NCBI GenBank assembly: GCA_903885445.1
Contig: CAISIO010000036.1
Coordinates: 37,485-101,484 of the forward strand
From: Candidatus Staskawiczbacteria bacterium
GTDB lineage: Bacteria; Patescibacteriota; Minisyncoccia; Minisyncoccales; Staskawiczbacteraceae
Reading direction: 5' to 3'
Length of the DNA stretch: 64,000 bases
In this document: one piece after another, positions 14,377-63,083 of the stretch
How positions within the stretch are numbered: position 1 is the first letter of the stretch
Layout of the letters: every line of letters starts with the position of its first letter
The notes under the pieces: generated by a model
What the model saw: the letters and a program-made list of their open reading frames with translations, nothing else
Told to the model about the DNA's origin: nothing
The model's database searches: none
Made by a program: the position numbers and the translations under genes

Positions 14377-14559
14377 TTGTATTTTGTGTATAATAGTATG
14401 TTATCAGAAATAAGAGAGTTTGTCAAAGGCCATTTTAATGATATAATGCTATTTATAATAGTTATGCTTTTAATTCTGCTGGCGTTTGCCTCAGGATATA
14501 TAACCGCAAAATACCAGTTAAAAGCGCCAATACAAATAACAAATCAATCAAAAATATGA
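14377..14559 (+). CDS. Small hypothetical membrane protein
   Basis: 60-aa ORF with one TM helix, stop overlaps uppS start. Weak. Confidence 0.3.
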   Translation: MYFVYNSMLSEIREFVKGHFNDIMLFIIVMLLILLAFASGYITAKYQLKAPIQITNQSKI

Positions 14560-18767: not shown

Positions 18768-18795
18768 AAAAAGAGGGAATTGAGCCCTCTTTTTT

Positions 18796-18819
18796 ATCGG
18801 CTCAACGCGTTGACCCGAT
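18796..18819. other. Candidate dif-like tyrosine-recombinase core site (9-6-9: ATCGGCTCA-ACGCGT-TGACCCGAT)
   Basis: Near-perfect inverted arms around a 6-bp spacer, 13 nt from the xer gene stop, at the point where gene orientation flips. Confidence 0.4.
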
Positions 18820-18831
18820 GGATTGTTATGA

Positions 18832-19803
18832 TTATTTTTTATCAGGGTCGGAGTGGAATTGGTGGTGGATATCGCGGAGGCGCTTGTTGGTTACGTGCGT
18901 GTAGATTTGAGTGGTGGCGATGTTTGAGTGGCCTAGAAATTCTTGGATGCTGCGCAAGTCAACGCCTTGGTTTAACAAATCTGTCGCGTAGCTGTGGCGC
19001 AAAGTATGCGGAGTGGTGAAGATTGGCACGCCTGAAAGCAGAGCGTATTTTTTTACCATTCTTTCTATAGATCGCGGAGTAAGACGGGAGTCGGTGTTAT
19101 CGGCCTTATCGCGGAAGTTTATAAACAAGGCTTTTTGGTTGGCGTGCTTAACATCATTTCTTATTTCTAAATATTTTCTGATAAAGCCCAACGCGCGTTC
19201 AGAAAAATAAACAACTCGAGGTTTTCCGCCTTTGCCAATAACACCAAGCTCCATATCTTTTTTATCTTTTAAACTGTTAAACTGCTCAAGATTTAAAGAA
19301 ACCAGTTCGGCGATGCGAAGCCCTGTTGAGAAAAACGCCTCCAAAATAGCCCGGTCGCGGGTGCTTATATCGTCTTTTGGCTCTATGGAAGATAAAAGCT
19401 TACCAATCTGCTCTAAACTAAGGAATTTTATGCTTTTTAAGCCCCTGTCAGGCTTTGAGAGCGATATTTTGTCAGGGGGCAGTGAAAGTACGTCTTTTGC
19501 CACAAAGTAGCCTAAAAAGGCCCTTAAGGCGATTAAATAGTAGTTTTGGGTGCCTTTAGACAGCAATTTGCCGGTAGTTGGGCTAGGCGTGCGGGAAAGG
19601 TATAAACGGTAGGTCCAAACATGGTCAGAGGTCAGCTGATGGGGGAGTAAAGAGGATAATTTGTCCTGGTCTAGCCAATGAAAAAATTTCCCCAGATAAT
19701 TTTTATAATTCTCCTGAGTATTTTTTCTCAAACCTTTTTCAACTTCGCAATAATCTAAAAAATCTTGCAGATGTTCTTTTATTGGTTTTGTTGAGTTTTG
19801 CAT
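18832..19803 (-). CDS. Tyrosine site-specific recombinase, XerC/XerD family
   Basis: 323 aa. N-terminal core-binding domain, C-terminal catalytic domain with R...HTLRHSYAT...LGHSNIATTQIYTHV (R-H-R-Y signature region). Confidence 0.85.
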   Translation of the reverse strand: MQNSTKPIKEHLQDFLDYCEVEKGLRKNTQENYKNYLGKFFHWLDQDKLSSLLPHQLTSDHVWTYRLYLSRTPSPTTGKLLSKGTQNYYLIALRAFLGYFVAKDVLSLPPDKISLSKPDRGLKSIKFLSLEQIGKLLSSIEPKDDISTRDRAILEAFFSTGLRIAELVSLNLEQFNSLKDKKDMELGVIGKGGKPRVVYFSERALGFIRKYLEIRNDVKHANQKALFINFRDKADNTDSRLTPRSIERMVKKYALLSGVPIFTTPHTLRHSYATDLLNQGVDLRSIQEFLGHSNIATTQIYTHVTNKRLRDIHHQFHSDPDKK

Positions 19804-55234: not shown

Positions 55235-55834
55235 TCATTGTTTATACTGCCGTTGACGCCTGACGAGGGTGATAGTGCCCAAACCGAGTAGTACAATCGT
55301 CGCTGGCTCGGGTATAGCTACGCCCTCTATTCGATAATCAACAGTTAGATAAAAGTCTGTCCAAATCCCATCATGTTGACCGTTTTCTCCTGGGATATCT
55401 ATTGTAAGATACTCAACAGTAGCGCTTATACTGTCAATTCGGTATCCTTGCAGGTCATGACCATTGCCGTCGCATATAGACATCCAAATATCCCATTTAC
55501 TTGGGTCATCGGATGTAAAAAGGATTGGCATAATCATTGAGTCATCAATGCCGTCCGTTGCAAATGCGACGAATGCCGCAAAATTAGGGTCATTGTCTCT
55601 GTTAGCGATAAAGGTCTTCCCTACATCCTGGATGCCAACGGTTATGTCCAAAATTGGGGGAGAGATTGGATTATCGCCCCATTGATCACCAACGAAGATG
55701 GCTGTATTTATCTCGTGGACGATGCGGTGCATGCCGAACCCCCCATCGAAGGAATACGTCTCGATGACTTCCGCTGGGGAAACGCCGGAACAGAGCAGAC
55801 AGGTTGCCATAACCATAGTTGTGCAAGCCTTCAT
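55235..55834 (-). CDS. Secreted protein with PEP-CTERM-like C-terminal sorting signal (GC-rich)
   Basis: Signal peptide. C-terminus ...IPEPATIVLLGLGTITLVRRQRQ (PEP + hydrophobic span + Arg cluster). TTGACT-17-TATTAA promoter and AAGGAGA SD. Confidence 0.5.
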   Translation of the reverse strand: MKACTTMVMATCLLCSGVSPAEVIETYSFDGGFGMHRIVHEINTAIFVGDQWGDNPISPPILDITVGIQDVGKTFIANRDNDPNFAAFVAFATDGIDDSMIMPILFTSDDPSKWDIWMSICDGNGHDLQGYRIDSISATVEYLTIDIPGENGQHDGIWTDFYLTVDYRIEGVAIPEPATIVLLGLGTITLVRRQRQYKQ

Positions 55835-55972: not shown

Positions 55973-56377
55973 TTATTCTTTTTTTTCTTCTACTTCCTCC
56001 GCTTTAACAAACTTCAATTCTTGTTTTTTAAAATTCACTAAAGCAATATGAGAGGAAAATAATTCAACGCCGCAAATTGCTTCTGTGGATTTTGGATTAT
56101 CAATCATAGAAGCTAATACCTGCTTTTCTACTCCGTCTACTATTACTTTTACGGAAAAATATAATACTGGTATCGGATAGCCATTAGCAAGCTCTGCTTC
56201 TCCTACGGAAGACAATTGTGCTCCTATGTCAATTAAATCAAGGATAGGTAAAGACAAACTTCCAGAATGGCCTGTATCAAATAACGCAGTTATTTGTTTT
56301 TTGTAGCCTTCTTTACTGCCGCTGATTTCTATGACAACCTTCGGGCTACCATCGCGTGCGTCAAAAATTCCAATCAT
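55973..56377 (-). CDS. Retropepsin-like (clan AA) aspartic protease
   Basis: ALFDTGHSGSLSLP contains the D-T/S-G active-site motif in a ~130-aa protein. Confidence 0.65.
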   Translation of the reverse strand: MIGIFDARDGSPKVVIEISGSKEGYKKQITALFDTGHSGSLSLPILDLIDIGAQLSSVGEAELANGYPIPVLYFSVKVIVDGVEKQVLASMIDNPKSTEAICGVELFSSHIALVNFKKQELKFVKAEEVEEKKE

Positions 56378-56378
56378 A

Positions 56379-56681
56379 TTACTGATAGCAAGGATTAAAA
56401 TTCAAGGAATAGCGGGAAGCTTTGTCCCCCTGTCCTATCCTTCTTATAAACATTATTTGGGTGGGGAATTCTTTTTTTGCCGAAGCAATTGCCTCGTCGG
56501 TTGTGTTCCCAATAAATTGTTTTCCCGAATTAACTTCAATAACTATATATTTACCATTCTGTATGGGTTCCAAAGCATTCTTAAGCCCATCATAAATCTT
56601 ATTTCCCTTGTCAATTATTTCTTGTATATTAGTCGGAGGTTTTGGTTGAGTTGGTTTTTCTTCTGGATTTGGATTTGTCAT
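56379..56681 (-). CDS. Hypothetical protein (DUF often paired with retropepsin-like proteases)
   Basis: 100-aa ORF abutting the protease gene. Confidence 0.4.
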   Translation of the reverse strand: MTNPNPEEKPTQPKPPTNIQEIIDKGNKIYDGLKNALEPIQNGKYIVIEVNSGKQFIGNTTDEAIASAKKEFPTQIMFIRRIGQGDKASRYSLNFNPCYQ

Positions 56682-57800: not shown

Positions 57801-57804
57801 TGAG

Positions 57805-57824
57805 TTATTTTACTCTTTATCTAT
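57805..57824. repeat. Conserved promoter module copy R1 (revcomp ATAGATAAAGAGTAAAATAA)
   Basis: Same 20-mer found at 60345 and 62462, each immediately upstream of a minus-strand AT-rich enzyme gene. Confidence 0.7.
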
Positions 57825-57901
57825 ATTTTTGCAAAAAAAATCCCCAACGCGCTTTGATCTGCGTGGGGACATGAGACATTCAGTTGCACCGGGTGGCGCA
57901 A

Positions 57902-58405
57902 CTACTTGACGACGTATTCCTCGAAGTTCTCCTTGGGCGGATTGGGCTTGGTCTTGAACGGCGCCCAGTTGAACTTCGAACTTGAAGCGTTGTACTCCCT
58001 GGCCAGGTTGTTCCGTTGGGAAGCAACAGCGATGAGATCTTCCCTCGCTTGCTGACGCTCCCTATTGAACTGGACCTGGATGTGGGGTGGCCACTTGGAC
58101 CTGTCGTCGCCGTAGCTCTTGTACTGCTCGTCCACCGACGAGCCCCGCTTCTCGAACATGACGATGTCCTGGTCCATCTTCTTTATGCGGGCGTTCTGGT
58201 CGATGAACCATTCGTACTTCTCGAGCGCGGCCTTGGGGCCGAACTCCTGCTGGGCGACCACCGCCGCCTCGCCGAACCAGCCGAAGCCGTATCCGATGAC
58301 GCCCACGACCACGGAAAACGCCACCACGAAAAGGATGACCTTCCAGGTGATGGACCAAGGACCCTTCTCCGCCGCTTGCTGATACCCATTCCAGTTGTTG
58401 CTCAT
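57902..58405 (-). CDS. Hypothetical membrane-anchored protein (GC-rich)
   Basis: 167-aa ORF with N-terminal TM. Terminator CCCCAACGC..GCGTGGGG + T-run at 57839-57875. Confidence 0.4.
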   Translation of the reverse strand: MSNNWNGYQQAAEKGPWSITWKVILFVVAFSVVVGVIGYGFGWFGEAAVVAQQEFGPKAALEKYEWFIDQNARIKKMDQDIVMFEKRGSSVDEQYKSYGDDRSKWPPHIQVQFNRERQQAREDLIAVASQRNNLAREYNASSSKFNWAPFKTKPNPPKENFEEYVVK

Positions 58406-58456
58406 GCGATTCTCCTGTTCCCGAGGTTAATTGTTCCGTTCTGGTGCCCGTTCGTC

Positions 58457-59155
58457 CTACTTCTTCTCCGCCTCGACCTTGAACTTGCCCTCCTTGATTC
58501 TCAGTTGCTCCTCCTGCTGGAGTTGCCAGTCGTGAGCGGCCTTGCTCATGTTGTACATACCCGTCACCTCGTCTTGTGGGTTGACGAGATCAATAGGGTA
58601 ATCGGTGATCAGGTAACCAATGCCGCCCGCCGTACCATACTGATGGTATCTGTGCATGGCGTCGAACCAGTAAATGTAGTTGTCCGATTCTCCACGGGTT
58701 CCGTCGGGGCCGATGGCCTCGTCTGTGAGAAAACCCTTATAGCTCGGTAGGCTGCTGGTGACCACGTTTTGACCATCAGCAACATAGTGCTTCGGTTCCA
58801 ACCGCTTGTTGGAACTGGTGACCTTGCAAGCCACCGGCATCCGCTTGATGATTTTGCCGTCCAGGGCCATCAAGTGAATCCACATCACCTTGGTGGGGTC
58901 ATTGGTCACCGCAATGCGGTCGTTGATGTTCTGCTGTTCGACCGTGTTGCCTCTGGAGTTCAGCGGTACTTTGACTGGAGAAGCTTGCTTGGCACCACTT
59001 GCCGATTCTTCGATCCTCCGATTATCGCACCCGCTCTGGCCTTGCCCTACCATCAGGCAGAGCACTCCGAACACAACCATTATTGTCGCCTTGCGCATGT
59101 TTGCGCTCCTTTCCAACTTCTCACGAGATTGTATGGACAAACCCCGCCATTTCAA
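58457..59155 (-). CDS. Hypothetical lipoprotein-like protein (GC-rich)
   Basis: Probable true start at internal MRKATIMVVFGVLCLMVGQGQSGC (signal + Cys). Confidence 0.4.
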   Translation of the reverse strand: MKWRGLSIQSREKLERSANMRKATIMVVFGVLCLMVGQGQSGCDNRRIEESASGAKQASPVKVPLNSRGNTVEQQNINDRIAVTNDPTKVMWIHLMALDGKIIKRMPVACKVTSSNKRLEPKHYVADGQNVVTSSLPSYKGFLTDEAIGPDGTRGESDNYIYWFDAMHRYHQYGTAGGIGYLITDYPIDLVNPQDEVTGMYNMSKAAHDWQLQQEEQLRIKEGKFKVEAEKK

Positions 59156-59326
59156 TGGCGAGATAAAACGAGGGGCTAGGACTTTTCTGCTAAAATGTCT
59201 CCTTTCAGATTTACAACGAACCGATTAGACAGCCACAAGCTGTCTAACTTACACTTTGGATTATAGCACTATTTATTATTAATGTCAACAGACGTAAAAC
59301 CAAAAAGCCGAGATAAAATCTCGGCG

Positions 59327-59340
59327 ATTGTCGCACAACA
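59327..59340 (+). repeat. 14-bp motif copy G (ATTGTCGCACAACA)
   Basis: Between stop of 59349..59870 and its GCCGAGAT..ATCTCGGC terminator. Confidence 0.7.
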
Positions 59341-59348
59341 AGATTATT

Positions 59349-59870
59349 TTATAAATTATATTCCCAGAAGGGTTGCCATTTGAAGGGAGTTTTTACGCAA
59401 TCTTCAAGAGTTTTGCCGGTCAGAGTATCTAATCCGAATTGAGTTGCGCGGTGGCCGACAACTAAAATTATCTTATCGGGATATTTTTGTTTCAATTCTT
59501 TAAAAAATTCTTGAACCCTTGTTATCGCCTGCTCATAGCTCTCGCCTTTTGGGAAAGGCATTTTTATTCTTTCTGCTTTCATTTTATCAACAATATTTTT
59601 GGGTTTGCCGTTAAAATCTCCGTAATTTAATTCGCGCAATCTTTTATCAATGATAACAGGAATTTTTTCTCTAAATGCAATTTTAACAGTATCTATTGCC
59701 CTAATTAAATCCGAGCAACAAATAATATCAAATTTTATATCTCCCAAAGCATTTTCCAGCTTTTTTGATTGTTGCACGCCCAACGGAGATAACTCAATAT
59801 TGTTCCAGCCGGAAGCTATGTCTTTTTCGTTATCAGTTGTTGTTGAATGGGTCGCAAAATATATCTTCAT
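59349..59870 (-). CDS. Histidine-phosphatase (phosphoglycerate-mutase-like) superfamily protein
   Basis: 173-aa, fold-level resemblance only (catalytic RHG replaced by THS at N-terminus), so assignment is tentative. Confidence 0.45.
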   Translation of the reverse strand: MKIYFATHSTTTDNEKDIASGWNNIELSPLGVQQSKKLENALGDIKFDIICCSDLIRAIDTVKIAFREKIPVIIDKRLRELNYGDFNGKPKNIVDKMKAERIKMPFPKGESYEQAITRVQEFFKELKQKYPDKIILVVGHRATQFGLDTLTGKTLEDCVKTPFKWQPFWEYNL

Positions 59871-60325
59871 AATGAATTTTCTTTGACCAGCTCTATCCTG
59901 GGCTCGCCGTCGCCGAAATAATTTTCTTTTTGCTCTTTTATTACAAAACCAAATGAAAGATAAATTTTCAGCGCGCCACTGTTTTCGGGATGCGTTACCA
60001 GCTCAATTCTTTTCATATTTTTCAGTTCTTCCAGCAAAAGCCGGGTTGCCTCCCGCCCAATCCCCTGTTTTTGAAATTGCGGGTCAATGGCAAGTCCCGA
60101 GATATAAGCAACGCCATCGGGCTTTATCTCGTAAGATGCGTCTCCGACAATTTTGCCATCACGCAAAATAAGATAAACCACTGCGTTATTTTTATTAAAA
60201 ACTTCTTCCCACCCTTTTTCTGTAATCTCAGCAGAATAGTTTTTGATGCCAATCAGCTTCTTTTCAATCTCTATCAAAACCGGAATGTCTTTAATTGTCG
60301 CTTTTTTAAAAATTATCTCCGCCAT
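59867..60325 (-). CDS. GNAT-family N-acetyltransferase
   Basis: Motif A ...QFQKQGIGREATRLLL... Confidence 0.8.
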   Translation of the reverse strand: MAEIIFKKATIKDIPVLIEIEKKLIGIKNYSAEITEKGWEEVFNKNNAVVYLILRDGKIVGDASYEIKPDGVAYISGLAIDPQFQKQGIGREATRLLLEELKNMKRIELVTHPENSGALKIYLSFGFVIKEQKENYFGDGEPRIELVKENSL

Positions 60326-60344
60326 AAAAATCTTTATTGTTCTG

Positions 60345-60406
60345 TTATTTTACTCTTTATCTATTTCTTTTCAATCACCGCCATCGGGTCAACGAACTGA
60401 CCCGAT
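60345..60406. repeat. Promoter module + 24-bp palindrome, copy R2/P2 (ATCGGGTCA-ACGAAC-TGACCCGAT at 60383-60406)
   Basis: ~62 bp near-identical to 62462-62523. Confidence 0.75.
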
Positions 60407-60503
60407 AAAATTTGCAAGAAAAATGGCCCGGCAACCAGCATCCTTGCTGGTCATCGGGCCTTTGTGTCGCGCTCGCTATATGCGAGCAAAACCTGTTAGA
60501 GGA

Positions 60504-60878
60504 CTAACCCTCCTCATCGTCCTCGTCGAGGGGTCTGTCTTTCTTGCCTTCATCCTCATCGTCATCTTCCTCGTCCTCGTCATCGTCGGGGAAGAGACTC
60601 CAGTCTTCCTCTTCCTCGTCGTCGTCATCGTCAAGGTTCTGATCCAGGAGGTTCCCCTCGGCGAGCTCTCGGGCGGTCGCGGCGAGCCACTCACGGAGTT
60701 CTTCCGGCGTGACGCCCATCTCCTTGGCAGCACGGAGGAAAAGCTCTTTGTCGAGTTCCTCGGTACTGTCGTTCAAGGGAAGATCTTCGCCAGGGTATTT
60801 CTCCGGCTTCAGCTCCTTCTCTTTCCAGTTCCACTCGTCCACCGCCAGGCCAATCGTCTCAATCCTTGCCTTGTCCAC
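60504..60878 (-). CDS. Hypothetical highly acidic protein (GC-rich), paralog of 61192..61536
   Basis: GTG start with AAGGAGA SD. Shares ...VDEWNWKEKE...LFLRAAKEMGVTPEELREW... with neighbour. Poly-D/E tail. Terminator at 60420-60470. Confidence 0.45.
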   Translation of the reverse strand: MDKARIETIGLAVDEWNWKEKELKPEKYPGEDLPLNDSTEELDKELFLRAAKEMGVTPEELREWLAATARELAEGNLLDQNLDDDDDEEEEDWSLFPDDDEDEEDDDEDEGKKDRPLDEDDEEG

Positions 60879-61191
60879 GTCAGTCTCCTTTTCTCGGCGC
60901 TACTTGTCCTTGTGTTATCGCCAACAGTTGCTCTGGCGCTTCAGCGGCGGTTAAGGCAACTGTTTTCGTACTATGAATATAATATCATATATAGAAATTA
61001 CGTCAATATTAAAATCAAACAAAAAGTACGGTAGCCTAAGAGCACGATTTCGCTATCTTAATGCGGATTAAATTAGTCCGCATCGCGGTTTTCTGCTAAG
61101 CCTTAATTCGCGCAAAAAAATCCCCGAGCACGCGATGATCTGCGTGTCCGGGGTCCCTTCTCGCCTTGCTGAAGCGAGAACTTACGACAAT

Positions 61192-61536
61192 TCATGCTCC
61201 CGCGCCTCGTCGGTCAGCTCTCTTCCCACACTGTTGGTCGGAGCGAGCGCGGCAAGGATGTCCGTCTGTGCTGAGCATATCAGCTATGCGCAGTGGACTC
61301 ACGTTTGGAGAAGGCGCTCCGAGCGGTCCGCACAGATCCTCCTCGAACCAATTGTGTAGTTCGTCTGGTTCGATGCTCATTTCCCGGGCCGCGCGGAGAA
61401 ACAATTTCCTGTTTTCCCCCTCAGTGTTGACGGTCAGTGCAGGAATGGCATTGGGAAAGTCTTTTCCCACTTGCTCCTTATCGTTCCATTCTTTCACCAG
61501 CCTTTCAATGTCGCCGAAACGCACATGTGTCATCAT
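61192..61536 (-). CDS. Hypothetical protein (GC-rich), paralog of 60504..60878
   Basis: AAGGAGA SD. ...VKEWNDKEQV...LFLRAAREMSIEPDELHNW... Confidence 0.45.
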   Translation of the reverse strand: MMTHVRFGDIERLVKEWNDKEQVGKDFPNAIPALTVNTEGENRKLFLRAAREMSIEPDELHNWFEEDLCGPLGAPSPNVSPLRIADMLSTDGHPCRARSDQQCGKRADRRGAGA

Positions 61537-61655
61537 GATTGTCTCCTTTTTCGGCCTATGCTCGTCGCACGTTATTTATATATAAAATACCACATATAAA
61601 AATGTGTGTCAATAAAAATAAAAGCAAACAAAAAGCCGATATTGAAGTGTCGGCT

Positions 61656-61669
61656 TTTGTCGCACAATA
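61656..61669 (+). repeat. 14-bp motif copy H (TTTGTCGCACAATA)
   Basis: Between stop of HIT gene (61673) and its GCCGACA..TCGGC terminator. Confidence 0.75.
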
Positions 61670-61672
61670 TAA

Positions 61673-62128
61673 TTATTTTAGCAAAGCTATGATTTTATTT
61701 TTTTCTTCCTCGGATAAATCTTTGTATAACGGGTCTTTGAATTTTTCAGCTTTTTCTTGGAGCTCGTCCTGAAAATCTCTTGGCAAAAGATGAAAATGCA
61801 CGTGGCCAACATGCGTTTGGCTGTTTTTTACGTAGGGTTTAAAGTTTTGCCTGATATCGCACCCCGATGATAATTTTTCCAGTATCTTTCCCTGAAACTC
61901 CACAAGCAAATCAAAAATTTCGCTTTGTTCTTCTTTTGTCAGCTGGGAAATACTTGTGACATGCCTTTTAGGAATAATAAGTGTGTGCCCCGCAACCAAT
62001 CTTGGATTGCTCAAAATAACATAAGCATTCTCTGTCTCTTTAATAGTCCTGTCTTCCTTGTATATATTGCAAAACGGACAATCCATAATTTTATTTTCCA
62101 TTATTGATATACTTTGATAATTTTTCAA
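61673..62128 (-). CDS. HIT-family nucleotide hydrolase/transferase
   Basis: Histidine triad HVGHVHFHLLPR, ...HTLIIPKRHV... Confidence 0.8.
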   Translation of the reverse strand: MKNYQSISIMENKIMDCPFCNIYKEDRTIKETENAYVILSNPRLVAGHTLIIPKRHVTSISQLTKEEQSEIFDLLVEFQGKILEKLSSGCDIRQNFKPYVKNSQTHVGHVHFHLLPRDFQDELQEKAEKFKDPLYKDLSEEEKNKIIALLK

Positions 62129-62456
62129 TCATATCAGGCGAATCATCGTATTCTATAAAATTCTCGGTTAATTTGCCGATGGATTTTGAATATTTGCTTC
62201 CCGTCTTGAAAATGCAGACAACCGGTATGTTAAAAACATCAGCCCAGCCCAATTCAATGCCTTGCCCCGTTGAAGAAAATGATATTTCAGCCACCACAAG
62301 GTTGCTATCTTTAATTATATCTTTTGTGATAACGTCTTTGCCATTCTCGTGAGGAAAAGATATTTCATGCTGTTTATTTATCTCCGAATTTCTAAGCGGA
62401 ATATATATCTGATTTTCAAAATCAAAACTGCTTGAGTGGCTAACAAATATTTTCAT
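62091..62456 (-). CDS. Nucleoside 2-deoxyribosyltransferase-like protein
   Basis: 121-aa flavodoxin-like fold pattern MKIFVSHSS...VVAEIS...GQGIELGWADVFNIPVV. Confidence 0.5.
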   Translation of the reverse strand: MKIFVSHSSSFDFENQIYIPLRNSEINKQHEISFPHENGKDVITKDIIKDSNLVVAEISFSSTGQGIELGWADVFNIPVVCIFKTGSKYSKSIGKLTENFIEYDDSPDMIEKLSKYINNGK

Positions 62457-62461
62457 ATTGC

Positions 62462-62523
62462 TTATTTTACTCTTTATCTATTTCTTTTCAACCGATGCCA
62501 TCGGGTCAACGAACTGACCCGAT
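62462..62523. repeat. Promoter module + 24-bp palindrome, copy R3/P3 (ATCGGGTCA-ACGAAC-TGACCCGAT at 62500-62523)
   Basis: Near-identical to 60345-60406. Additional nested palindrome CCGATGCCATCGG. Confidence 0.75.
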
Positions 62524-62596
62524 AAAACAGGCAAAAAAAACAGCTTCACTCCAAGTGAGCCTTGATGTGAAGCCTGCGTCGCAACGAAGCGTCCGC

Positions 62597-62965
62597 CTAG
62601 AGGGCGAGCTTCTTGCACAATCGTGCGACATCACTGCTGACCTGCAATGCCCTGGCGCAGAACTCCTCTGGGCTTTTGCCCTCCTTGGCGGCCAGCTTTG
62701 CGATTACATCCTGCCTAAGGGAGTGAGTTTTGGCGATGACCTTCCCGGGTACGTCTGGCGAAACGCCAAGCGTAACGGCAATCTGGTCCAGGGTCGGCAT
62801 GGCACCGCCGGCTACCAGAACCTTCAAGGTCAAGTATCCTACGACGGCCCGGGACTGCTTGCCCCGATCCACTGGCGGACTCGCGGCCGGCTTAGCCTCG
62901 GTTTCGACTTCTGTTCCATTGGGCATGTTGCACCATTCCTTTTCTGTGGCCAATTGTTGCGACAC
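62597..62965 (-). CDS. Hypothetical small protein with possible HTH (GC-rich)
   Basis: ...PTLDQIAVTLGVSPDVPGKVIAK resembles a helix-turn-helix. Terminator GCTTCAC..GTGAAGC + T8. Confidence 0.4.
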   Translation of the reverse strand: MSQQLATEKEWCNMPNGTEVETEAKPAASPPVDRGKQSRAVVGYLTLKVLVAGGAMPTLDQIAVTLGVSPDVPGKVIAKTHSLRQDVIAKLAAKEGKSPEEFCARALQVSSDVARLCKKLAL

Positions 62966-63083
62966 CTATATTTAATATAATCTCTGTAGGTTTTCTGTCA
63001 ACATGAAAAAATCTCAAATGAGTAGAATTACGCGAATAATTTTACAAAAAAATGCCCCTTAATTTTTATCAAGGGGCTGAAAG

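Follow-up and report, generated by a model that had tools for sequence, protein, structure and literature searches.

Integrative mobile elements exploiting Xer (IMEX), such as CTX phage and the gonococcal genetic island, encode no recombinase and integrate at the chromosomal dif site, with one flank of the element forming a functional dif. The attC sites of integrons are about 55–140 nt long, contain two box pairs (R''-L''...L'-R') and need an integron integrase and an attI site. XerS/difSL and XerH/difH pair one Xer with a site of greater symmetry that directly adjoins the recombinase gene, close to the terminus, and this adjacency is conserved within clades. Classical families of repetitive extragenic palindromes (REP) or miniature inverted-repeat transposable elements (MITE) have high copy numbers. 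Toxin-antitoxin genes are common cargo of dif modules. The pdif sites have distinct XerC and XerD arms (e.g. ATTTCGTATAA / TTATGTTAAAT) and hence an intrinsic polarity; they allow excision only if two of them are in direct orientation and have identical or near-identical spacers, the crossover falling within the sites (PMC13141974). The XerC/XerD-dependent dif modules of Acinetobacter plasmids are the closest in function to the locus described here: a 24-bp palindrome present twice in direct orientation around a four-gene module, in a 64,000-nt stretch of a Candidatus Staskawiczbacteria contig (assembly GCA_903885445.1, contig CAISIO010000036.1, positions 37,485–101,484 of the forward strand; hereafter the window).

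The feature is real and non-random. We read the palindrome, with a probability of roughly 0.4, as a dispersed repeat that is gained and lost, is recombinogenic or mobile, and marks cassette boundaries, acting in cis as a site of recombination or mobility. A first-pass annotation had instead called the palindrome dif-like and likened the segment between its copies to Xer-dependent modules that recombination would excise as a circle, with an operator for a dimeric regulator as the alternative.

The palindrome pair and a junction contig

The 24-mer ATCGGGTCAACGAACTGACCCGAT has two exact matches in the window (60383–60406 and 62500–62523), both on the + strand, against zero expected in shuffled sequence. 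The first-pass annotation had placed these direct copies in a near-identical block, and both were recovered exactly as described; the block extends for 79 nt at 90% identity (repeat search) or 66 nt at 94% (blastn), and its two copies start 2117 bp apart.

60345–60423, unstranded: 79-nt repeat block, copy 1 (promoter, 8-nt linker, palindrome, terminator T-run)
62462–62540, unstranded: 79-nt repeat block, copy 2, 90% identical to copy 1
60383–60406, unstranded: palindrome copy 1, ATCGGGTCA-ACGAAC-TGACCCGAT, exact match
62500–62523, unstranded: palindrome copy 2, identical to copy 1, direct orientation
60421–60463, − strand: terminator-like hairpin and U-run of the 124-aa gene (RNA fold −29.7 kcal/mol, z = −4.0)
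62540–62577, − strand: terminator-like hairpin and U8 of the upstream 122-aa GC-rich gene (weaker fold, z = −1.75)

Three parts make up each block: 30 nt of identical promoter sequence, an 8-nt linker in which the copies disagree at 5/8 positions (TCACCGCC vs CCGATGCC), and a 31-nt identical segment (GCC, the palindrome and AAAA). The two copies match through the non-palindromic spacer and the CC/AAAA flanks, and this identity beside a diverged linker fits either copies of one element or homogenization by recombination. The site (CCATCGGGTCA-ACGAAC-TGACCCGATAA) has arms of 9–11 bp around a 6-bp spacer, the arm-spacer-arm layout of dif. As a DNA hairpin, copy 1 folds with −8.7 to −9.1 kcal/mol (z about −3 to −3.7). 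The window holds three members of the family and no degenerate copies, and as a short intergenic palindrome the element also answers to a REP/MITE-type description.

Two other identities were considered and rejected. On the gene strand a T-run precedes the hairpin and on the other strand an A-run follows it, so that the palindrome suits an intrinsic terminator in neither direction; real terminators directly adjoin it, that of the 124-aa gene stopping 14 nt short of copy 1 and that of the 122-aa gene 16 nt short of copy 2. As for an RNA element, the Rfam matches in the window are two tRNAs only.

A contig from a sister metagenome (L001; 757 bp, ENA ERZ18662751) was recovered by exact-protein look-up of a gene of the module that resembles nucleoside 2-deoxyribosyltransferase (NDT-like). 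Bases 1–138 of this contig correspond to window positions 60543 down to 60406, and bases 139–757 to positions 62523 down to 61904, both at 100% identity. In a three-way alignment, L001 has the linker and promoter of copy 2 on one side and the terminator flank of copy 1 on the other, which confines the crossover to the 31-nt identical block around the palindrome. Judged from its sequence, L001 is the exact junction predicted for an excised circle or a tandem duplication of the module. The first-pass annotation had proposed a search for circular junctions as a check; L001 supplies the predicted junction, in a short contig of a fragmented assembly that may be a chimera. Evidence for recombination between the two copies is therefore suggestive but unconfirmed. 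What is shown is the repeat structure, the indel polymorphism, the scattered distribution and a contig with the expected junction; in our reading the junction would be biological and the crossover site-specific rather than homologous.

The palindrome family in other contigs

A pattern search of sequence collections returned 18 metagenome and 13 genome contigs, about a dozen of them low in GC and resembling the candidate phyla radiation (CPR); there were no viral contigs among the matches. The family consensus is ATCGG(C/G)TCA-N6-TGA(C/G)CCGAT, often flanked by CC...GG; members turn up sporadically in Staskawiczbacteria and in other CPR genomes of Parcubacteria-like type. The search pattern fixed every arm position except position 6, so the conservation of the fixed positions is not evidence. 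At position 6 the two arms agree (C/C or G/G) in 12 CPR-like sites, and 3 sites are mixed.

In CPR-like contigs the palindrome is almost always intergenic, and about 10/17 sites lie within ~20 nt of a terminator-like hairpin, irrespective of gene direction. Two arrangements recur. The order stop codon, palindrome, terminator is found at the third family member of the window (site 1, beside xer; see below), in L015, in L021 and at both copies in L030; the order terminator T-run, palindrome, next promoter is found at the two module copies and in L004, L005 and L022. The distance from the palindrome to the next −35 box ranges from 8 nt (both module copies) up to 60–66 nt (L005 and L022). The genes adjoining the palindrome are unrelated across loci, as judged by all-against-all BLASTP of the open reading frames (ORFs) within 4 kb of every CPR-like copy.

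Direct pairs of the palindrome surround small modules at three independent loci: the window (2,117 bp), L003 and L030. The L003 pair is spaced by 2,457 bp, with 38 nt conserved at each site, and encloses an amidase gene and a pair of small ORFs, which by eye may be a candidate toxin-antitoxin pair. The L030 pair, spaced by 912 bp, encloses one HNH gene. A different kind of variation separates L005 from L022, which share a 96%-identical backbone and carry the palindrome in different intergenic positions, beside different single-gene cassettes.

The differing cassettes of L005 (4940–5950 and 6900–6960) and L022 (3140–3600 and 4590–5330) are delimited by T8G terminator tails and duplicated TTGACAA −35 boxes, a pattern that suggests cassette exchange at conserved regulatory sequences. 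Both contigs show the same cassette style as the array of GC-rich and AT-rich genes in the window.

The junction in L001, an indel beside xer (below), the different positions in L005 and L022, the direct pairs, the adjacency to terminators, the unrelated neighboring genes, the identity of the module copies beside a diverged linker, the paired bases at arm position 6 and the absence of copies from ~200 kb of other CPR DNA lead us to the reading of a dispersed, gained-and-lost repeat, in which direct pairs of the palindrome would delimit modules that can be excised or duplicated. Mechanistically, a recombinase supplied in trans would bind the two 9–11-bp arms and exchange strands across the 6-bp spacer. 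Given identical spacers and direct repeats, the product would be an excised circle with one site, or a tandem duplication through unequal exchange between sister chromosomes. A candidate enzyme would be the single Xer, the only one visible in the window; a hairpin-binding transposase encoded elsewhere would be an equally possible agent. We also consider unlikely a reading in which the palindrome is the crossover site of a so far undescribed CPR cassette-exchange platform. Modules bearing their own promoters would be excised as circles and re-inserted, by the housekeeping Xer or another recombinase, at a symmetric site of 24–28 bp that is unrelated to canonical dif; such a platform would be a functional counterpart of integrons and pdif modules.

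Several observations weigh against the dispersed-repeat reading. The collection search demanded exact arms, so that arm conservation and C/G symmetry are partly built in. No recurrent family of recombinases, transposases or regulators was found within 4 kb of the CPR-like copies, and in the window itself no transposase and no recombinase other than Xer was seen. The swapped cassettes of L005 and L022 are not bounded by the palindrome on both sides, and a third copy of the promoter found in the repeat blocks, as well as two cassette terminators, lack it. Copy number is low (3 in 64 kb). In three sister samples, the organism is present only as contigs of ~600–770 bp (L001, L002 and L054); L001 could be a chimeric join across the 31-nt exact repeat, arising from fragmented assembly, and the 79-nt repeats would yield an identical junction if they recombined by homology.

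Elsewhere among the fetched sequences the palindrome is sparse: no copy was found, even with 4 mismatches allowed, in ~200 kb of CPR DNA from other sources, among it the xer regions of three relatives. In L006 (9878–9901) and L011 (156–179), which are related contigs, the palindrome, conserved but for one arm base, lies inside a long ORF (951 aa in L006); this ORF is miscalled, or else coding sequence can harbor the site. In a Lachnospiraceae metagenome-assembled genome (MAG; L024, 4773–4877), two copies of ATCGGCTCAACGGATTGAGCCGAT lie 81 nt apart in a near-perfect 81-nt tandem repeat of this non-CPR genome, which happens to include the palindrome. L027 and L032 (Saccharicrinis MAGs) and L010 share the element AAAAA-ATCGG(G/A)TCAACGTTTTGA(C/T)CCGAT-TTTT in the same conserved context; with its 10-bp stem and 4-nt loop it resembles a bidirectional terminator, and some non-CPR matches to the pattern may therefore be ordinary terminators.

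The module and its tandem array

The module between the palindromes contains four genes on the − strand, among them two GC-rich paralogs. Three copies of one promoter (promoter P) lie in this part of the window.

62091–62456, − strand: nucleoside 2-deoxyribosyltransferase-like gene, 121 aa (Pfam PF05014 E = 0.0075, PHROG NDT E = 0.003)
61673–62098, − strand: HIT-family gene (Pfam HIT E = 3.9e-11), with its ATG placed at 62098 after the L001 gene call
61192–61536, − strand: GC-rich 114-aa gene, with its own TTGACA-17-TATTTT promoter
60504–60878, − strand: GC-rich paralog of 124 aa, acidic in its tail, with a weak SinI-like motif and its own promoter at 61006–60979
60347–60374, − strand: promoter P, TTGAAA-16-TAAAAT, reading into the GNAT (59867–60325) and histidine phosphatase genes
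62464–62491, − strand: promoter P, TTGAAA-16-TAAAAT, reading into the NDT-like (62091–62456) and HIT genes
57807–57834, − strand: third promoter P, TTGCAA-16-TAAAAT, upstream of a NUDIX gene, without palindrome

The gene content given by the first-pass annotation (two GC-rich paralogs, a HIT gene and an NDT-like gene) is borne out, as are the duplicated TTGAAA-16-TAAAAT minus-strand promoters into the GNAT and NDT-like genes, present in both blocks. The NDT family match is weak: its Pfam E of 0.0075 is under the curated cut-off, and the best homolog is 70% identical. A search for presence or absence of the module among relatives found no homolog of the NDT-like protein above 70% identity, and the contigs with NDT-like homologs (L041–L053) show ordinary chromosomal contexts without palindrome or HIT gene. 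In a look-up aimed at an empty-site junction, the proteins flanking the module were recorded on the 118,534-bp source contig only; a 579-bp contig with a variant of the GNAT gene (one substitution) exists.

The GC-rich 114-aa and 124-aa paralogs share 43% identity over 53 aa, and each has a sigma-70-like promoter. Their family has 19 representatives among 1.84 billion proteins, none of them named, and neither paralog has a Pfam match. A motif common to both (LFLRAAKEMGVTPEELREW) has a weak likeness to the helix by which SinI and SinR interact (NCBIfam E = 0.0019, far under the cut-off). A phage origin was rejected, the palindrome being absent from IMG/VR and the GC-rich proteins having neither viral relatives nor PHROG matches.

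The three promoter segments (57804–57834, 60344–60374 and 62461–62491) are 87–100% identical over 31 nt, spacer included. The third, upstream of the NUDIX gene and without a palindrome, is an addition to the earlier description; there the terminator T-run abuts the −35 box. The distance from the −10 box to the ATG is 7 nt for the NDT-like gene and 6–7 nt across the NUDIX and NDT-like genes, a spacing that suggests leaderless mRNAs for both.

The segments 57804–60344 and 60344–62461 are paralogous scaffolds. Both carry promoter P, both have a homologous intergenic stretch (A3) after the AT-rich gene pair, at about 65–70% identity over ~100 aligned columns, and both have a homologous terminator (A4) after the GC-rich gene; their coding sequences are unrelated. 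The 2.1-kb module is one unit of this tandem cassette-like array, in which a unit comprises promoter P, a pair of AT-rich enzyme genes and GC-rich orphan genes. The palindrome stands at 2/3 of the promoter P junctions.

This array also bears on the explanation that survives best beside the dispersed-repeat reading, in which the palindrome has no role in recombination: the repeat would be a duplicated promoter-hairpin block, the hairpin would sit passively beside terminators, and L001 would be a chimera or the product of a rare RecA-dependent event. We consider this unlikely. In its favor, the two units share promoter P, A3 and A4 around unrelated coding sequences, and the sister samples that gave the short fragments L001, L002 and L054 have low coverage. 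The 31-nt exact repeat is also about as long as small-k-mer assembly or homologous recombination could bridge. Against it, the same 24-mer occurs in unrelated contexts of other CPR organisms, a clean indel is found beside xer, the positions in L005 and L022 differ, and direct pairs recur around modules.

Coding GC alternates along the array (57835–59200, 60410–61560 and 62525–63000), with AT-rich enzyme genes at 0.33–0.37 and GC-rich orphans at 0.52–0.58. Each GC-rich orphan has a TTGACA-16/17-TATAAT-like promoter close to the consensus, and the terminators behind several of them read T7-8-then-GC. An ORF resembling retropepsin-like aspartic proteases recurs beside accessory genes (window 55973–56681, L003 220–603 and L041–L050). 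A small ORF precedes it both in the window and in L041–L050, and in L041–L050 the pair adjoins the NDT-like homologs; the protease-like ORF of the window has no Pfam match. At 55235–55834 lies a gene for a 199-aa protein with a C-terminal PEP-CTERM motif (Pfam E = 1.7e-05), which is unexpected for a CPR genome.

Comparison with dif, integron and repeat systems

The third member of the family lies beside the gene for a tyrosine recombinase.

18796–18819, unstranded: site 1, ATCGGCTCAACGCGTTGACCCGAT = ATCGGCTCA-ACGCGT-TGACCCGAT
18832–19803, − strand: Xer-family tyrosine recombinase (Pfam Phage_integrase E = 3.6e-37)

The likeness of the module copies to this site, reported by the first-pass annotation, is confirmed: the right arm is identical and the left arm matches at 8/9 positions, with 3/6 in the spacer. 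Judged by the flanks CC...AAAA, site 1 is inverted relative to the module copies, a second addition to the earlier description. It is placed between the xer stop codon, 12 nt away, and a bidirectional terminator, and has one C-type and one G-type arm.

The recombinase is the only tyrosine recombinase found in the window, and no Xer paralog was seen there. Its matches to the NCBIfam XerD and XerC models (E about 1e-66 to 5e-65) fall under the curated cut-offs. It is 80–93% identical to more than 100 protein clusters, the named ones being Candidatus Staskawiczbacteria, and its gene lies in a conserved order (MurD-FtsW-MurG-GltX-small ORF-Xer). The cumulative GC skew has its maximum at ~19 kb and the genes flip from the + to the − strand at 18.8 kb, which together put xer and site 1 at a terminus-like point. 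The module palindromes are 41–44 kb away.

In the relatives examined, the site is absent beside xer. In L034–L036, whose Xer is 92% identical, the 3' end of xer is followed by the same terminator (AAAAAAGAGGGCTCAAT.CCCTCTTTTTT) without the ~34-nt palindrome segment, which is thus a clean indel between the window and L034. No family member was found within 10 kb of xer in L034–L036, in L037 (Xer 88% identical) or in L038–L040 (80%). When one genome from each GTDB species was scanned with ATCGGNTCAACGNNNTGANCCGAT, the matches were a single Staskawiczbacteria MAG (two contigs) and one CPR-like bin; in that MAG the palindrome is not near an xer homolog. Nor do the ~12 CPR-like contigs with the palindrome have an xer homolog in the fetched flanks.

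These results bear on the explanation in which the palindromes are the chromosomal targets of Xer, site 1 is dif and the 2.1-kb segment is a pdif- or IMEX-like module that Xer excises. Several features speak for it: the layout of arm, 6-bp spacer and arm; the position of site 1 just past the stop of the only tyrosine recombinase, at the skew maximum and orientation switch; the mixed C-type and G-type arms of site 1, as in a recombinant site; the predicted junction in L001; and the variable gene content directly downstream of xer among relatives. Direct repeats with identical spacers also agree with the excision rule of pdif sites (PMC13141974). We nevertheless regard this explanation as quite unlikely. 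Xer is core and syntenic, yet the palindrome is absent beside it in L034–L040, and cleanly so in L034; the species scan, the lack of xer near the CPR-like copies, the 41 kb between module and site 1, and the difference of their spacers at 3/6 positions all speak against it, as do arms unlike those of canonical dif or pdif. The arms ATCGGGTCA / TGACCCGAT have no similarity to the XerC/XerD arms of pdif and dif sites tabulated in PMC13141974.

The dimer-resolution site of an essential, highly conserved recombinase should not be so sporadic, and the label dif-like is to be dropped; the palindromes are probably not the dif site of this chromosome. Of the excisable Xer module proposed earlier, the direct sites, the identical 6-bp spacers, the L001 junction and the comparable direct pairs in L003 and L030 are supported, and the dif identity is not. 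Lying 41 kb from the terminus-like site, the segment is not an IMEX integrated at dif. No convincing canonical dif or conserved palindromic site was found near xer in the relatives. A dif candidate at window position 14436 was rejected, as it overlaps a promoter and the start of a small ORF, both conserved for other reasons.

Two further observations concern the region around xer. Between xer and the LAGLIDADG/uppS block (window 18770–19000) the gene content differs in each relative examined (L034, L037 and L038), which on sequence comparison marks the region downstream of xer as a variable spot at the terminus-like point. The 13-mer TTGTCGCACAATA occurs 7 times in the window against 0.14 expected (15898, 20381, 20771, 37943, 54138, 59328 and 61657). 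It is on the + strand at 6/6 positions to the right of ~19 kb and on the − strand at the single one to the left, typically just past a stop codon and before the terminator, on the strand of the gene; it also follows xer in L034 (about 11040) and L037 (about 11025).

Compared with the Acinetobacter pdif modules, the locus is alike in being a small recombinase-less module with short boundary sites of arm, 6-bp spacer and arm. The pair in the window has the orientation and spacers of an excisable pdif pair, the apparent crossover in L001 falls inside the site block, and the small ORFs of L003, read by eye as a candidate toxin-antitoxin pair, would be fitting cargo. It differs in four respects. 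Single pdif modules are bounded by inversely oriented sites, whereas the sites in the window are direct repeats; its arms are near-perfect inverted copies of each other, unrelated to dif, rather than two distinct arms; the window has a single Xer; and its sites are on a chromosome-like contig, those of pdif modules on plasmids. IMEX are matched by the lack of a recombinase, the directly repeated flanks of Xer-type layout and the potential for excision as a circle, but not by the position of the module, 41 kb from a terminus-like site that relatives do not conserve.

With integrons the loci share arrays of small co-oriented cassettes, a palindromic site just past a stop codon (L030 and site 1) and accessory cargo (GNAT, NUDIX and HNH genes, and the candidate toxin-antitoxin pair in L003). 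The C-type palindrome, GCTCAAC...GTTGAGC, fits the core motifs RYYYAAC/GTTRRRY, whereas the G-type arms of the window miss the core consensus at one position each. The palindrome is 24–30 nt long with one stem only, and each cassette comes with its own promoters and terminators. Neither an integron integrase nor an attI is present; the tyrosine recombinase of the window scores 102 bits with the integron-integrase model, against a cut-off of 265. Membership in dif modules or integrons is not supported, given symmetric non-dif arms, direct repeats, a short site and the absence of an integron integrase.

Like REP elements with their REP-associated tyrosine transposases (RAYT) and other miniature repeats, the palindrome is extragenic, lies by gene 3' ends and terminators, is polymorphic for presence and absence, and shows paired arm changes that preserve the stem. 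It differs from REP and MITE families in its frequency (3 per 64 kb, and none in ~200 kb of related DNA) and in having no GTAG-type head motif, and no gene for RAYT, another HUH enzyme or any transposase was seen near the copies. With XerS/difSL and XerH/difH it shares a single Xer and a symmetric site directly beside the gene near the terminus, but here the adjacency is absent in relatives whose Xer is 92%, 88% and 80% identical.

The weakest explanation, that the palindrome is the operator of a dimeric transcription factor upstream of the −35 box and the repeat a duplicated promoter-operator, is improbable. In its favor, the symmetric site is centered ~54 bp upstream of the inferred start at both promoters, with 8 nt separating it from the −35 box; several homologous sites occupy the interval from a terminator to the promoter that follows; and a nucleotide-related regulon is conceivable for the genes behind promoter P (NUDIX, GNAT and histidine phosphatase, NDT-like and HIT). 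Against it, site 1 and the sites in L015, L017, L021 and L030 lie between a stop and a terminator or between convergent genes, where a promoter is unexpected; the −35 box is anywhere from 8 to ~66 nt away; the third promoter P has no palindrome; the downstream genes are unrelated across loci; the half-site centers are 15–17 bp apart, a spacing unusual for helix-turn-helix dimers; and the two copies agree throughout the non-contacted spacer, although the neighboring linker has diverged. The operator offered as an alternative by the first-pass annotation is thus weakened by sites without promoters, by variable spacing and by unrelated downstream genes.

CPR bacteria (Patescibacteria) have tiny genomes, and to our knowledge little is established on how they exchange accessory genes; we know of no integron- or pdif-like cassette system in the phylum. 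A literature search on dif sites or integrons in CPR found nothing bearing on the palindrome. The choice between a new cassette system and an ordinary dispersed repeat turns chiefly on whether sequencing reads bear out the junction and on a count of copies across the genome; a junction seen in contigs of a fragmented assembly calls for such reads. Even if the palindrome is an ordinary repeat or operator, its case illustrates that a position by xer at the terminus does not in itself make a palindrome a dif site. If the dispersed-repeat reading is true, systems of recombinase-less modules (pdif, integron-like) would extend to a new phylum and a new type of site, and a short palindromic boundary site would provide a concrete mechanism for the accessory islands of CPR bacteria that mix AT-rich and GC-rich genes.

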